A stretch of 32,000 nucleotides of DNA, from the NCBI GenBank assembly GCA_016196885.1, contig JACPWU010000011.1, positions 1-32,000 on the forward strand, given 5' to 3'. The position numbers were made by a program, and so were the translations under genes. This DNA comes from Chlamydiota bacterium (GTDB lineage Bacteria > Auribacterota > JACPWU01). Below, in pieces: positions 14,827 to 30,892 of the stretch. A model generated the notes under the pieces. The model was not told where the DNA came from. It saw only the letters and a program-made list of their open reading frames with translations, and ran no database searches. Within the stretch, counting starts at the first letter, position 1. The number at the start of each line of letters is the position of its first letter.

Positions 14827-14910
14827 AAGTTGTAAGTTGTAAGTTGTAAGTTATAAGTTTGAAAGGAGTCCATTTTTTACTTACAACTTAAAACTTATAA
14901 CTTACAACTT
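14827..14910 (-). repeat. Heptamer-periodic intercistronic hairpin (pnp|ftsK), terminator-like
   Basis: Left arm is (TTGTAAG)x3 + TTATAAG (14830-14857). Right arm is ACTTACA ACTTAAA ACTTATA ACTTACA (14879-14906). The 19-nt loop contains AAAGGAG. It abuts the pnp stop, and in mRNA sense it is followed by UUUUAUC-AUG of ftsK. Confidence 0.85.
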
Positions 14911-17042
14911 TATTTGTATGATCCCTCATCATCAGAAGGCAGGGCTAGAGCAGACGAGCCGGCTTCTGCAAGAACCGCCTTGCGGCTTAGGTTGATGCGT
15001 CCCCGTTCATCAATCTCAATCACCTTGACCATCACGGTATCTCCCGTTTTCAAAACGTCCTCCACCTTCTTGACCCGATGTTCCGCCAATTGAGAAATAT
15101 GAACCAAGCCTTCTTTCCCGGGAAGCACTTCTACAAAGGCGCCAAATTCCATGATATTTTTCACAGTCCCTTTATAGATTTTTCCCACCTCGACTTCAGC
15201 CGTCAATTCTTTAATCTTTTGAATCGCAGCGTCCACCCTCTGACTCTTGGGAGAGGCAATGGCCACAGAACCATCATCTTCAATGTTAATCTCGGTTTGA
15301 GTTTCCTCAATAATCTTCTTGATGGTTTTTCCACCCGGCCCGATCAAAAGACCTATCTTTTCCGGATTGATTTTAATCGTCACAATTCTCGGGGCATGTT
15401 CAGAAATTTTTTCACGGGGATGAGCTATCGCCTTCTCCATCATGTTCAAGACGTGAAGGCGGGCCACACGGGCCTCTTCCAAAGCCTTTTTCAAAACAGG
15501 CTCTTCCAACCCTTCAATCTTCAAATCCATTTGAAAACCTGTAATGCCCTGAGAGGTTCCCGCCACCTTAAAATCCATATCCCCCAAATGGTCCTCAGAA
15601 CCCAAAATATCCGTGAGCACCACCGTCTTGTCGGACTCTTGAATGAGTCCCATCGCCACACCCGCCACAGGGGCCTTTACCGGAACCCCTGCATCCATAA
15701 GCGCCAAAGCACCGCCGCAAACCGTCGCCATGGAACTGGAGCCATTGGACTCCAAAATGTCGGAAACGAGGCGAATGGTATAAGGAAAAGCTTCCTGACT
15801 TGGAAGAATGGCTAAAAGCGATCTCTCTGCCAACGCCCCATGCCCGATTTCTCTTCGGCCCGGACCTCGGGAAGGCTTGACTTCTCCCACACTAAAGGCC
15901 GGAAAATTATAATGCAACATGAACGATTTAGAAGTCTCTCCCTCAAAACCCTCGGTTCTCTGCTCATCATCCACGGTCCCTAACGTTGCAACAGCCAAGG
16001 CCTGGGTCTCTCCGCGCGTAAAAAGGGCCGAGCCATGCGTGCGAGGTAAAATTCCCACCTCACAGGTGATGGGTCGAACCTCTTTCGTCGAACGGCCATC
16101 GTTGCGAATCCCCTTCTCCACAATCATGCGGCGCACCTTCATTTTTTCAATTTGGGCAAAGGCCTCCTTAAACATTAAATCTGAGACTTCAGGAAATTGA
16201 GCGGACAAAATTTCTTTCACCTCTCGGTACAATTGACCCAAATTTTCTTCCCTCTTTCTTTTCTCGGGAACCACTAAAATGTGATCTATCTTTCCATCTA
16301 ACGCCTTTTTCATCGCATCAAAAAACAAGGGCTCCACGGTAAAGACGGGAAAATCTTTTTTGGTTTTTCCACATTTCTTCCTTAAATCTTCCTGAAGACG
16401 CGTCAATTTCTTAATCTCTTCGTGCCCCACCCGCAAGGCCTCGACCATCTGATTTTCAGAAATCTCATGTGCAGAACCTTCCACCATCAAAATAGCCTTT
16501 TGGGTTCCTGCCACCACCAAATCCAACTCGCTTTCCTTTAATTCAGCATACGTAGGATTGATGATCCATTTCCCATCCTTCAAACCGACTCGAACAGCAC
16601 CGACCGGTCCGGAAAAGGGAATTTCAGAAACATGAAGCGCGGCCGAAGCTCCAATAATGGATAAAATATCCGGATCATTGTGCTCATCAGCAGAAATGAC
16701 CTGGGATGTGATTTGGACTTCATTGAAGAATCCTTCGGGAAAAAGGGGTCTCAAGGGACGATCGGTGAGACGGGCTGTCAAAATTTCTTTCTCGGTTTGA
16801 CGTCCCTCTCTTTTGATATATCCCCCCGGAAATCTTCCGGCCGCAGATGTTTTTTCCCGATAATCTACGGTCAAAGGAAAAAAATCTGTCCCTTCCCTTA
16901 CCCCCGAACTCACCACGGCTGCGACGAGAACAATGGTCTCGCCCATCTGAACTGTGACAGCCCCATGGGCTTGCTTGGCCATGCGGCCTGTTTCAACCGA
17001 AATCATTTCTTTTCCAATTTGAACCTCTAATCGTTGTGTCAT
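14910..17042 (-). CDS. pnp: Polyribonucleotide nucleotidyltransferase (PNPase)
   Basis: 710-aa ORF with two RNase PH domains, KH (GPGGKTIKKIIEETQ) and S1 (GKIYKGTVKNIMEFGAFVEVLPGKEGLVHISQL). Confidence 0.97.
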   Translation of the reverse strand: MTQRLEVQIGKEMISVETGRMAKQAHGAVTVQMGETIVLVAAVVSSGVREGTDFFPLTVDYREKTSAAGRFPGGYIKREGRQTEKEILTARLTDRPLRPLFPEGFFNEVQITSQVISADEHNDPDILSIIGASAALHVSEIPFSGPVGAVRVGLKDGKWIINPTYAELKESELDLVVAGTQKAILMVEGSAHEISENQMVEALRVGHEEIKKLTRLQEDLRKKCGKTKKDFPVFTVEPLFFDAMKKALDGKIDHILVVPEKRKREENLGQLYREVKEILSAQFPEVSDLMFKEAFAQIEKMKVRRMIVEKGIRNDGRSTKEVRPITCEVGILPRTHGSALFTRGETQALAVATLGTVDDEQRTEGFEGETSKSFMLHYNFPAFSVGEVKPSRGPGRREIGHGALAERSLLAILPSQEAFPYTIRLVSDILESNGSSSMATVCGGALALMDAGVPVKAPVAGVAMGLIQESDKTVVLTDILGSEDHLGDMDFKVAGTSQGITGFQMDLKIEGLEEPVLKKALEEARVARLHVLNMMEKAIAHPREKISEHAPRIVTIKINPEKIGLLIGPGGKTIKKIIEETQTEINIEDDGSVAIASPKSQRVDAAIQKIKELTAEVEVGKIYKGTVKNIMEFGAFVEVLPGKEGLVHISQLAEHRVKKVEDVLKTGDTVMVKVIEIDERGRINLSRKAVLAEAGSSALALPSDDEGSYK

Positions 17043-17048
17043 ATATGT

Positions 17049-17318
17049 TTACTTTCTTAAGTTTAATTTTTCGACCAAGGTCTGATATCTACCATTGTCC
17101 TGACGGTTTAAATAATCTAAAAGCTTCCTTCTGGCTCCCACCATTTTCAAAAGGCCGCGTCTAGAACTGTGATCCTTGATATGGGCCTTAAGATGTTGGG
17201 TCAAATCATTGATCCTCTGGGTTAAAAGGGCAACCTGGACCTCAGGAGAGCCCGTGTCTCCTTCATGAACACTAAAATTTTTTTTGATTTCCTCTTTTTT
17301 TTCCTTCACCAAAGCCAT
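17049..17318 (-). CDS. rpsO: 30S ribosomal protein S15
   Basis: 89 aa from [11 protein letters not shown]...[54 protein letters not shown] lies about 10 nt upstream of the ATG at 17318. The 110-aa track ORF extends into the repeat and was trimmed. Confidence 0.95.
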
Positions 17319-17334
17319 AATCTTTATCTCCTTA

Positions 17335-17468
17335 TATTTCACCTGAAAATAGTCTTTAGTCATTCTTATACAATGACTCATGATAGCTTGTAGTCGCCCG
17401 ATTTATCGGGCAATGCCCAATGCCCCAATGTCATAGACCGCCCCATAAATGGGGCGACTACAAGGGTG
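17335..17468. repeat. ~130-bp repeat unit (copy 4) containing REPIN-like core 17389-17462
   Basis: Near-identical to 6443-6575, including the 28-nt spacer ...AATGCCCAATGCCCCAATGTCATAGACC. It occupies the ribF|rpsO spacer. Confidence 0.9.
17346..17373 (-). promoter_or_regulatory. Promoter-like motif inside the repeat unit, facing rpsO
   Basis: On the minus strand: TTGTAT (17373-17368), 16-nt spacer, TATTTT (17351-17346), about 28 nt upstream of the rpsO ATG. The same motif is intact in repeat copy 1 (6453-6480). Confidence 0.35.
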
Positions 17469-29347: not shown

Positions 29348-29356
29348 ATATAAAAA

Positions 29357-29518
29357 CAGTCGTGGGTCGTGAGGGGTGAGTCGTGAGCAAGAGTGAAACA
29401 GTCGTAAATGGGTAGTCGTGAGTTTTGAAGATATTATTTTTTTACTCACCACTCACGACTCACCACTCACAACTGCTTTTAAGAAACTCACCACTCACGA
29501 CAGACGACTCACGACTAT
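29357..29518 (-). repeat. Largest heptamer-periodic hairpin (purA|uppS)
   Basis: Left: 9 in-phase heptamers from 29359 (GTCGTGG GTCGTGA GGGGTGA GTCGTGA ... GTCGTGA). Right: 11 in-phase heptamers from 29444 (ACTCACC ACTCACG ACTCACC ACTCACA ... ACTCACG). It fills the spacer from the purA stop to 9 nt before the uppS ATG. Confidence 0.85.
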
Positions 29519-30793
29519 TTATAAAAATATCGTCTGATCTCGATCGGCTCCGACTGAGACAATCTTGACGGGGGTTTCCAGAAGCTGAGAAATCCTTTCG
29601 ATATAACGGCGGGTCGCTAAGGGCAAATCCTGATAACGCCTCACGTGATGAATTTCCTCACTCCATCCATCCATTTCCTCATAAATGGGTTCACAGGCCC
29701 TCAACACACTGATATCATGCGGAAAAAAAGAATACGTCTTTTTCCCATTCCGATATCCCACACAAATCTTGAGTTTTTCGACTCCTCCCAAAATATCCAG
29801 TTTGGTCACCGCCAGGGCATTCATCCCATTGACAAGAACAGAATAGCGAGCGAGGCAGGCATCGAACCATCCGCAGCGGCGCGGTCGGCCCGTGGTCGCC
29901 CCATACTCCTTCCCCAAAGAGCGAATCTTCTCCTGCATATCATCCTTAAATTCTGTCGGAAAGGGCCCTTCTCCCACACGTGTGGTATAAGCCTTCACAA
30001 CCCCCATTACTTGATCGAAGACCCGGGGACTTAACCCCGATCCGAGGCTTGCTCCCGCTGAAACAGGATGGGAACTGGTAACATAAGGGTAAGTTCCAAA
30101 ATCTACATCCAAAAGCGTTCCTTGCGCTCCTTCAAAGAGGATCGTCTTTTTCCCTTTCACAGCCTGATTTAAAAGCTCAATCGTATCACAGGAAAATTTC
30201 TTAAGGTTGCGTCCATACTCGATATATTGATGAAAAATTTCTTCAAAATTCACGGGAGGAGCATGAAAAACCTTTTCAAAAACTTCATTTTCGAACTCGA
30301 TGTTCTCTTTCAATTTTCGATAAAACCGCCCTTCATCGTAGAGATCCACGAGACGAATCCCTGTGCGAGAGGCCTTATCCGCATAGGCAGGACCAATCCC
30401 CTTTTTCGTCGTCCCAATCGCGTCTCGTCCGCGCCTCTTCTCCTTCAAAACGTCCAGAGCTTGATGATAAGGAAAAATAAGATGCACGCCTTCGCTCACA
30501 AAAAGGCGCTTCTCATCCACATGCACTCCCTTCGATTCTAAATAGGCAATCTCTTCAAGAAGCGCCGCGGGATTGACCACCACCCCATGCCCAATCACGC
30601 ATTTTGTTCCAGTATGCAAAATCCCAGAAGGAATCAAATGCAAAATAAATTGAGTCCCATTCACCTCAACCGTATGTCCGGCATTATTCCCTCCCTGGTA
30701 ACGGACCACGTAATCTGACTTCTGGGCCAGAATATCAATGATCTTGCCCTTTCCTTCATCACCAAATTGTGCGCCGATTAGAACTGTATTCAT
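29519..30793 (-). CDS. purA: Adenylosuccinate synthetase
   Basis: 424-aa ORF: [44 protein letters not shown]. Confidence 0.97.
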
Positions 30794-30799
30794 AAAAAA

Positions 30800-30892
30800 C
30801 CGTCGTTCGTCGTTCGTTGTTCGTATCTCGTCGTTCGCATTCCGTCGTTCGTATTCCGTTTTAACGAACGACGAGATACGAGCGACGAATAA
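30800..30892 (-). repeat. Heptamer-periodic hairpin (serA|purA), terminator-like
   Basis: 13 consecutive in-phase heptamers at 30801-30891 (CGTCGTT x4 with variants, then ACGAACG ACGAGAT ACGAGCG ACGAATA). A 17-nt perfect complement joins TCGTATCTCGTCGTTCG (30821-30837) to its partner at 30864-30880. In mRNA sense it ends ...CGAACGACGG-UUUUUU-AUG (purA). Confidence 0.85.

Follow-up and report, generated by a model that had tools for sequence, protein, structure and literature searches.

Heptanucleotide hairpins in operon spacers of an Auribacterota genome, a probable family of palindromic repeat elements

Results

Heptamer hairpins within a conserved gene string

The window analysed here is the whole of a 32,000-nt stretch (contig JACPWU010000011.1, positions 1 to 32,000) from the Chlamydiota bacterium assembly GCA_016196885.1, which GTDB places in Auribacterota. 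Its minus strand carries the gene string serA, purA, uppS, cdsA, dxr, rseP, proS, nusA, infB, rbfA, truB, ribF, rpsO, pnp, ftsK, rodZ and rimO. Gene identities and the co-directional order were verified from serA through ftsK, and more distant homologues of purA and pnp bear the labels Chlamydiota, Omnitrophota and Auribacterota. Six spacers of this string (serA–purA, purA–uppS, uppS–cdsA, cdsA–dxr, rbfA–truB and pnp–ftsK) are each occupied by a long hairpin whose arms are tandem arrays of a 7-nt unit (Table 1). Most likely, these elements act as a spreading and decaying family of repeat DNA rather than as locus-specific regulators.

Both the hairpins and their heptameric arms had been predicted from the sequence, and both are borne out. 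The minimum free energy (MFE) of all six spacers lies beyond that of 200 dinucleotide shuffles per spacer, with z-scores from -4.4 to -11.6; stems measure 22–56 bp and loops 11–47 nt. According to Tandem Repeats Finder (TRF), both arms of each hairpin contain period-7 arrays, and 15 of its 34 rows have this period. A scan at lag 7 finds 8 runs (266 nt) in the window where 30 dinucleotide shuffles lead one to expect 0.1, and the same scan finds no runs in the window at lags 6 and 8–12. The density of period-7 runs, 25 per 100 kb in the window, falls to 1.9 per 100 kb, or 13-fold lower, in a control set of 688 kb of unrelated bacterial loci. Within the clade, 15 of 18 such runs have an inverted partner at most 160 nt away, as against 2 for the control. 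A genome-contig search with UppS returned distant relatives only (at most 58% identity) and served solely as a control set, which held two unrelated heptamer hairpins.

Independent Logan assemblies reproduce the six hairpins base for base, so the elements are not artefacts of one assembler; the Logan contigs end inside arrays, which multi-copy repeats would be expected to cause. The Logan assemblies and the metagenome-assembled genome (MAG) are 100% identical and thus show no polymorphism in unit number. At the gathering threshold, Rfam 15 gave no match for the window hairpins. A search by E-value returned only sub-threshold plant and animal microRNA-precursor models on two hairpins, which are generic hairpin matches; one of them (29394–29481) marks the inner unit of the purA–uppS element. 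That element is doubly nested, with an outer unit bounded by AAATAG...CTGTTTTT and an inner unit (about 29395–29480) bounded by AAAAGCAG...CTGTTTC.

As originally predicted, the heptamer differs by locus and the architecture recurs, and the units have no significant common consensus. A hidden consensus of the form NNNNNAG or AGTNNNN was considered and rejected, the information at optimal rotation being 4.25 bits, where the null gives 4.16 ± 0.21 (p about 0.3). Growth by slippage, also proposed at the outset, is supported in its 7-nt steps. Arm lengths differ by whole units, variant units stand in one arm without a mirror in the other, and single arms are expanded, for example CTAAAAA at 10 copies against 3.4. 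The unmirrored variants and whole-unit differences fit independent slippage of each arm, not strict upkeep of pairing. About half of the elements share a boundary, with an A-run and CAG at the 5′ side, often fused to the upstream TAA, and CTG or CGG followed by a T-run at the 3′ side. A loop motif, TCCTT or AAGGA, occurs in 7 of 19 elements and in both orientations.

The junctions with the flanking genes were confirmed as first described. The TAA codons of pnp and purA abut the stem, the TGA of cdsA lies 3 nt before it, and the TAG of rbfA (19281–19279) lies within the 5′ arm; the TAA of serA runs into AAACAG. The U-runs ahead of the ftsK, cdsA, uppS, purA and dxr starts are also as quoted in the original prediction. 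By homology, uppS starts with the ATG at position 29347 and dxr with that at 27588, which has GGAG ahead of it (27598–27595). Mechanical open reading frame (ORF) calls overrun into the hairpins, giving uppS as 28634–29452 (GTG at 29452) and dxr as 26392–27618 (ATG at 27618). ATGGACT units create spurious in-frame ATGs, and the elements can thus mislead start-codon annotation.

The array core at 7797–7914 had been called similar. It does contain inverted heptamer arrays, but its fold is weaker. A larger hairpin with a GC clamp (CCCCCG...CGGGGG) encloses the arrays, and the whole structure lies in the spacer that separates the convergent 4HBT and PepMx genes.

Homologous copies at non-orthologous sites

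Loci from relatives were compared with the window: L041 and L047 belong to a sister genome, L045 and L049 to an element-free relative, and L043, L046 and L048 were also included. The AAAATCA/TGATTTT type occupies at least 5 places in about 40 kb of the sister genome (L041 and L047). At least 4 of these copies align as homologues, with 30-nt identical stretches, an inner TGACA...TGTCA and similarity in the loop flanks. The AGTCCAT element at cdsA–dxr in the window aligns over its whole length with the element at serA–purA of the sister genome (L041), and the homology covers the non-repetitive loop GAAATAAAYGA..TCCTT.AAACTGT. GGGCTAA elements lie at non-orthologous spacers of two genomes (L043 and L046), and at rbfA–truB both the window and L047 have the loop motif in its inverted form.

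Judged by these alignments, multi-copy homologous families exist in at least the sister genome. The original prediction had regarded the hairpins as locus-specific and not as copies of a mobile element. That view is not supported, in light of the four or more homologous AAAATCA copies, the AGTCCAT homologue at another locus, the shared boundary and loop motif, and the presence/absence pattern described below.

Gain, loss and replacement among relatives

Four related genomes retain the order tig-clpP-clpX-serA-purA-uppS-cdsA-dxr-rseP-proS-nusA-infB-rbfA-truB-ribF-rpsO-pnp-ftsK. Three of the four bear like heptamer hairpins with other units, at spacers that partly match those of the window (Table 1). 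In the element-free relative, no heptamer hairpin was found in about 32 kb (L045 and L049, non-overlapping), and its junctions overlap or measure 9–63 nt.

Individual junctions illustrate the turnover. The serA–purA junction, whose flanking protein termini are conserved, lacks an element in L043 (TAA-AAGGTTTACAG-ATG) and L045 (TAA-AAGGGAGAT-ATG), whereas in the window, L041 and L046 it holds a hairpin and is 100–143 nt long. At rpsO–pnp, only L047 has a hairpin. The cdsA and dxr genes overlap by ATGA in three genomes, and their spacer spans 102 nt in the window and 186 nt in L041. A derived dxr N-terminus (MTKQE) is common to the window and L041, as is a hairpin at this junction, but the heptamers differ, which suggests element turnover. 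Filled and empty orthologous junctions, together with different heptamers, indicate that elements are gained, lost and replaced in spacers, including conserved-operon spacers that are 0–16 nt long or overlapping in element-free relatives. Some orthologous spacers keep a hairpin while the heptamer changes, namely rbfA–truB in three genomes and cdsA–dxr in the window and its sister; other junctions are empty in some relatives. Fold z-scores of the relatives' copies range from -8.7 to -1.1, which points to a series from intact to decayed copies.

Table 1. Heptamer elements of the window and of related genomes. Positions are those of the window.
Element	Location	Position	Strand	MFE	z-score	Arrays, loop and flanks
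Heptamer hairpin	pnp–ftsK	14826..14911	-	-31.0	-8.3	5′ arm (sense) 14879–14910, TTGTAAG-type units ×4.6; loop AAAAAATGGACTCCTTTCAAA; 3′ arm 14827–14859, CTTACAA ×4.7, then UUUUAUC-AUG of ftsK
Heptamer hairpin, CAGAAGA/TCAGAAG units	rbfA–truB	19236..19300	-	-25.0	-5.2	TRF arrays 19236–19262 and 19280–19298; loop TAAGGAATTGTATTTATT, the family loop motif in inverted orientation
Heptamer hairpin, AGTCCAT/ATGGACT, 4.4 units per arm	cdsA–dxr	27603..27688	-	-41.4	-8.1	TRF arrays 27605–27635 and 27657–27687; loop GAAATAAACGAACTCCTTTAAAAC; then UUUUC-GGAG-N6-AUG of dxr
Heptamer hairpin, asymmetric expansion	uppS–cdsA	28526..28622	-	-22.0	-4.4	5′ arm 28598–28621, TTTTGAG-type ×3.4; 3′ arm 28526–28596, CTAAAAA/CTCAAAA ×10.1, about 47 nt unpaired, then AUUUUUUAU-AUG of cdsA
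Double nested heptamer hairpin, TCGTGAG/TGGTGAG units	purA–uppS	29357..29518	-	-84.9	-11.6	TRF arrays 29358–29387, 29444–29474 and 29486–29516; then AUAU-AUG of uppS
Heptamer hairpin, TCGTTCG/CGAACGA	serA–purA	30800..30893	-	-43.5	-4.9	TRF array 30801–30852; 3′ arm 7.4 units, 5′ arm about 4; 3′ end GACGG-UUUUUU-AUG of purA
Inverted heptamer arrays, AAATTCG/CGAATTT	4HBT/PepMx convergent spacer	7797..7914			-2.65 (7790–7920)	
Short heptamer hairpin, CAATGTC/GACATTG	4HBT/PepMx convergent spacer	8115..8172				
GGGCTAA	clpX–serA in L043; tig–clpP in L046					
GGGGATT-like	serA–purA and uppS–cdsA in L046					
AATAACC	rseP–proS in L046					
GTTACCN	rbfA–truB in L047					
ATGTATC	rpsO–pnp in L047					
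AAAATCA	ribF–rpsO and rimO–x in L047; cdsA–dxr in L041					
GTGGATT	rbfA–truB in L048					
GCGTTTT	pnp–ftsK in L048					
14-mer ×5.7	before mnmA in L048					

Starts, termination and strand signals

The hairpins had been read as terminators fused to start codons, with initiation independent of a Shine–Dalgarno (SD) sequence as a special property. Neither part is upheld. A terminator scan of 12300–32000 flagged 22 sites and none of the six heptamer hairpins, and an SD core is present in only 13 of the 28 window genes (15 have none). An SD core follows a hairpin in 1 of 6 cases against 12 of 22 elsewhere in the window, a difference that is not significant. The 3′ arms end 3–10 nt ahead of the ATG codons of ftsK, cdsA, uppS and purA, starts that have no SD core. 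Intrinsic terminators usually have a GC-rich stem of 5–14 bp and a loop of 3–8 nt followed by a U-tract. The window elements resemble them, including the bidirectional A-tract/U-tract form, in having a hairpin right after the stop codon, an A-run before it and a U-run after it. Unlike terminators, they have far longer stems and larger loops, lie inside operons ahead of presumably essential genes and go unflagged by the scan. No promoter-like sites were found after the six hairpins, so uppS, cdsA, dxr, purA and ftsK must be expressed by read-through.

Among the six window elements, the sense strand folds better in 3 and the antisense strand in 3. The arm-asymmetric sites are uppS–cdsA and serA–purA in the window, L041 15542–15665, L047 7497–7614, L048 19351–19430 and L039 12597–12710. 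Unit counts in the start-proximal and the other arm are 10.1/3.4, 7.4/about 4, 7.4/3.6, 6.1/3.6, 11.4/about 1.5 and 8/4; one reverse case has 5.1 against 3.1.

Two further candidates for function were rejected. An antisense mini-ORF behind an AAGGAG-like loop motif occurs only in the cdsA–dxr element and was judged a coincidence, and pairing of a loop AACUCC with the dxr GGAGUU is geometrically implausible over a 32-bp stem. Upstream of nusA (23759–23676, minus strand) lies a promoter-like TTGACA-18-TAAAAT (11 of 12 positions), followed by a hairpin with a GC stem and a U-run, GAAAGAGTGGGAGATACCCACTCTTTTTCGTTT. This short, terminator-like structure is conserved in L043, L045/L049 and L047 and is probably a leader or attenuator of the nusA–infB operon.

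Occurrence of heptamer arrays elsewhere

In a Peptococcaceae MAG (L002 17686–17797) and a Parcubacteria MAG (L039 12597–12690), the whole stop-to-start spacer of co-directional genes is likewise taken up by a heptamer hairpin. The unit in L002 (CAGAAGT/GAGAAGT) is that of the rbfA–truB element and fits the class-3 consensus MTYCTGA of Geobacter metallireducens; in view of the permuted-unit controls described below, the match between L002 and the window is probably a coincidence.

A metagenome scan with 1.7 units of the AGTCCAT array as query matched at least 120 loci. Among the matches listed, 56 contain period-7 arrays (29–67% GC), with at least 156 period-7 runs against 5–37 at other lags, and in about 90 of the 156 the unit is neither AGTCCAT nor a close variant of it. 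An inverted partner accompanies 39 of 134 runs among these matches, and several fill spacers between ORFs. In viral contigs, trimers of AGTCCAT and TTGTAAG had 6 and 10 matches, and composition-matched permuted units had 5 and 12. A special status of particular units was rejected, as permuted controls are equally frequent; the sharing of a unit with distant organisms can be coincidence. Together with the lack of a unit consensus, this result makes the unit sequence seem arbitrary. Certain genomes are prone to 7-nt arrays, as described for long simple sequence repeats (LSSRs).

Other repeats and neighbouring genes

At least three other palindromic repeat families lie in spacers of the window. 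Family B has four copies (6494–6572, 8020–8100, 12385–12455 and 17385–17460) with an invariant TGTAGTCGCCCGATTTATCGGGCAAT ... CCCCATAAATGGGGCGACTACAA and a variable centre with CAATGCCC/CAATGTC short repeats, and it resembles a classical family of repetitive extragenic palindromic (REP) or miniature inverted-repeat transposable element (MITE)-like sequences. The TTTAACCTCAATAYCGAAGTTGA family, of the form TTTAACCTCAATA(C/T)CGAAGTTGA...TCGAATTCCATGATTCAACTTCGGTATTGAGGTT, occurs at 8972–9099 and in the 434-nt nusA–proS spacer (23340–23773), where it makes a very long hairpin. In the rbfA–infB spacer (19633–19810), a third palindromic family is represented by a long hairpin with CCCGCATTTCTCATCA...TGATGAGAAATGCGGG as its closing ends. 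Ends of a related type, TGATGAGAAAT(G/T)C, lie upstream of serA and in the sister genome; the sites noted are the start of L050 and L047 2818–3664. The relatives also carry a MITE-like element, GAAAAAGGCC(C/T)ATCT(A/G)CTGCG ... CCTTTTTGA, with terminal inverted repeats of 9–15 nt; none was seen in the window. It occupies a different spacer in each genome (L047 12086–12238, L046 6596–6760, L043 15326–15493 and L048 15571–15720).

A plus-strand cluster at 2573–6425 encodes a PqqD-like protein, an HPr-kinase-C-like protein, a small ORF, a nucleotidyltransferase of family 5 (NTP_transf_5) and another small ORF, a combination that we presume to be reminiscent of tailoring clusters for ribosomally synthesized and post-translationally modified peptides or lasso peptides. 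The ProS of the window (23774–25084) has 436 aa and matches the short "exception" model of prolyl-tRNA synthetase without an editing domain. Syntenic ProS proteins of relatives (L043 15494–17197 and L045 10857–12551) have 564–567 aa and a tRNA_edit domain. In the element-free relative, the gene after pgpA (L049 17960–22121) is annotated with a 13,860-residue product and has no Pfam match on record.

Discussion

The heptamer hairpins are DNA-level repeats of the lineage and not regulators tied to particular genes. We consider it on balance probable that they form a family of non-coding palindromic repeat elements whose arms are short tandem heptanucleotide arrays, that is, simple sequence repeats (SSRs) of the LSSR type or the short tandemly repeated repetitive (STRR) type arranged as an inverted pair. 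In such a family, arrays would lengthen and shorten in 7-nt steps by replication slippage, and the similarity of the arms may be kept by intrastrand template switching (palindrome correction), by selection for pairing, or by both. New copies would arise by some copy-and-insert route. In a transcribed operon, each element would fold into a hairpin of 25–55 bp, usually flanked by a 5′ A-run and a 3′ U-run, and would probably cause partial termination, protect the upstream 3′ end and serve as a substrate for RNase III. The hairpins would also break the translational coupling that links adjacent cistrons in relatives, and unpaired extra units of the 3′ arm, together with the U-run, would supply an unstructured leader for SD-poor starts. 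These mRNA effects would be side effects, tolerated or occasionally co-opted, and not the reason why the elements exist.

REP/REPIN, Correia and ERIC elements are dispersed intergenic hairpins that are transcribed with operons and act as terminators, mRNA stabilisers and RNase III sites as by-products. By analogy with this known behaviour, the long stems and the U-run make partial termination, RNase III cleavage and 3′-end protection plausible by-products of the heptamer hairpins; a standby leader is plausible as well. The likeness to REP/REPIN and MITE-like families extends to multiple homologous copies at non-orthologous intergenic sites and to presence or absence between relatives. REP, Correia and ERIC elements, however, have conserved arm sequences and, where known, RAYT or terminal inverted repeats with target-site duplications, whereas the arms here are internally periodic and differ from copy to copy, and no defined ends or target-site duplication were found, nor a transposase in the window.

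Several observations weigh against a repeat family. The window's 32 kb hold each unit at one locus only; that the source genome carries several copies is inferred from its sister. No consistent target-site duplication emerged when empty and filled sites were compared, the window holds no transposase, and no mechanism of insertion was found. The rbfA–truB, serA–purA, pnp–ftsK and cdsA–dxr spacers are occupied in several genomes, which could reflect selection for structure there. In five of the six window elements, the U-run stands directly ahead of the next start, and a 5′ A-run is also present. Of the 21 elements overall, 14 have the better fold on the sense strand and 7 on the antisense strand, with 80 G–U pairs in sense against 56, and where arm asymmetry is large the start-proximal arm is the longer one in 6 cases against 1. 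The position of the U-run and the two biases hint at RNA-level or strand-specific forces; the arm bias could come from strand-asymmetric slippage or from selection for an unstructured leader.

Several of these observations also favour selected intercistronic RNA regulators, which would act as attenuators or partial terminators, as RNase III processing or stabiliser sites, or, through the U-run and unpaired repeats, as SD-independent standby sites. Such regulators would account for hairpins placed exactly between stop and start with A- and U-runs, for filling of several orthologous spacers in more than one genome, for the weak sense-strand bias in folding energy and G–U pairs, and for expansion of the start-proximal arm. 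Stems of 22–56 bp suffice for RNase III, an SD core is missing from five of the six downstream genes, and a translational role has been proposed for TAACTGA repeats ahead of SD-less starts (PMC4679880). We nevertheless regard this account as fairly unlikely. Relatives with 72–77% identical proteins have the same operons with junctions that overlap or span 9–16 nt and contain no hairpin. The terminator scan passes over all six elements, whereas the terminator that the lineage conserves ahead of nusA has a short GC stem. With no promoter-like sites after the hairpins, efficient termination would silence the presumably essential uppS, cdsA, dxr and ftsK. The absence of SD cores is widespread in the window and its association with hairpins is not significant, the loop motif occurs in either orientation, decayed copies are present, and elements also lie in a convergent spacer (7797–8172).

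A broader proposal, which we hold to be unlikely, is that of a general class of self-propagating "slippery hairpin" elements across bacterial phyla, seen here in this clade, in the Peptococcaceae and Parcubacteria MAGs and in numerous metagenome contigs, with concerted evolution of the arms in 7-nt steps. Such elements would have been co-opted as intercistronic devices, the hairpin serving partial termination or RNase III processing, while SD-less genes would gain a tunable standby leader from the U-run and the expandable, unpaired array next to the start. If this were true, the start-proximal expansion bias (6 against 1) would be a signature of leader tuning.

The elements could instead be independent de novo products of mutational bias, in which short palindromes in A/T-rich spacers expand locally by 7-nt slippage and the similarities are convergent. 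Heptamers are the commonest class of long SSRs in many prokaryotes, and slippage has been proposed for them, according to the accounts of Mrazek 2007 in PMC4679880 and PMC4692102; the units are arbitrary, permuted controls are equally frequent, and the same build occurs in unrelated phyla. Independent origins are made quite improbable by the full-length homology, non-repetitive loop included, of the window cdsA–dxr and L041 serA–purA elements, by the 30-nt identical stretches, inner TGACA...TGTCA and loop-flank similarity of the AAAATCA copies, and by the nesting of the purA–uppS element.

Binding of a nucleoid or regulatory protein (IHF/HU-like or repeat-binding) to heptamers of both strands has been invoked for paired hepta-, octa- and nonanucleotide sites of G. 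metallireducens, whose class-3 MTYCTGA contains the reverse complement of the window TCAGAAG (PMC2700814), and a Nostoc preprint invokes a heptamer-binding partner, but it is very improbable here, as the heptamers differ and have no significant shared consensus that a single sequence-specific binder would fit, the 7-bp spacing is at odds with the helical repeat of DNA, and in a large collection arrays of permuted heptamers match the real ones in frequency, so that unit identity carries no detectable signal.

The palindromic repeat family is not without precedent, although the original prediction knew of no described class. Partial precedents are the STRR and LSSR heptamers, the Xanthomonas GGGAATC pairs (PMC4692102), the G. 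metallireducens sites (PMC2700814) and the TAACTGA repeats (PMC4679880). Cyanobacterial STRR units include CCCCAGT, TTGGTCA and CAACAGT (Mazel et al. 1990, as given in citing papers). As far as the citing literature describes them, LSSRs (Mrazek et al. 2007) and STRRs share with the window elements head-to-tail 7-nt units that are over-represented relative to other periods, intergenic, present at many loci and variable by whole units. In the same accounts, they are mainly direct arrays of a few genome-wide units, whereas here 15 of 18 arrays form inverted pairs and the unit varies by element. A few STRR units are described at about 100 copies per genome; the window's 32 kb show each unit at a single locus, and 40 kb of the sister genome show AAAATCA at 5 or more places. 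STRR hosts are cyanobacterial; the host here is a MAG of the Planctomycetes–Verrucomicrobia–Chlamydiae type.

A similar arrangement is that of Xanthomonas, in which 70–75 inverted GGGAATC pairs per genome lie preferentially between co-oriented ORFs, near or overlapping the stop codon (PMC4692102). Related species there differ in repeat length but agree in whether a repeat is single or an inverted pair (Rehm et al. 2015, PMC4692102). Like the clade's elements (15 of 18 arrays qualify), each pair consists of two convergent arrays of one unit on opposite strands. Xanthomonas, however, uses one G-rich unit genome-wide, read as a G-quadruplex former (PMC4692102), whereas the units here are diverse and mostly not G-rich. 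None of TTGTAAG, TCAGAAG, AGTCCAT, TTTTGAG, TCGTGAG and TCGTTCG has the G-tract of GGGNATC, which is approached only by the GGGGATT-like unit of L046, and the window-type elements add A-run/U-run flanks and a semi-conserved loop.

In G. metallireducens, intergenic pairs of sites on opposite strands, each with 3–5 tandem units of 7–9 nt, are multi-copy and absent from a sister species (Aklujkar et al. 2009, PMC2700814). They differ from the elements described here in being read as IHF/HU sites with a fixed consensus per class and a variable pair distance, with no hairpin or mRNA role proposed (PMC2700814). TAACTGA arrays end a few nucleotides from start codons, in spacers mostly without a canonical ribosome-binding site, and are patchy across phyla (MacGregor 2015, PMC4679880); where relatives keep the gene neighbourhood, their spacers are shorter and free of repeats (PMC4679880). 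The heptamer arrays within a few nucleotides of the SD-less starts of ftsK, cdsA, uppS and purA recall this arrangement. The TAACTGA sets are nearly all direct (1 indirect among 170) and use one unit (PMC4679880), whereas the start-proximal array here is the 3′ arm of a hairpin and units differ. Together, the precedents cover most of the architecture; what differs is the near-exclusive hairpin arrangement, the diversity of units per genome, the A-run/U-run flanks and loop, the position at core-operon junctions and the host lineage.

Heptanucleotide repeats are the commonest long prokaryotic SSRs, and their origin and effects are still unexplained. This clade offers an unusually clean natural experiment, in which housekeeping operons exist with and without the elements, one junction carries different heptamers, and genes that overlap in one genome sit 100–170 nt apart, separated by a hairpin, in another. 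At a practical level, the elements break short-read assemblies and mislead start-codon calling, as in the extension of uppS and dxr into hairpins. The clade makes testable how palindromic arrays originate, are homogenised and spread, how operons tolerate a structured spacer, and how termination, processing and translational coupling may be rewired.

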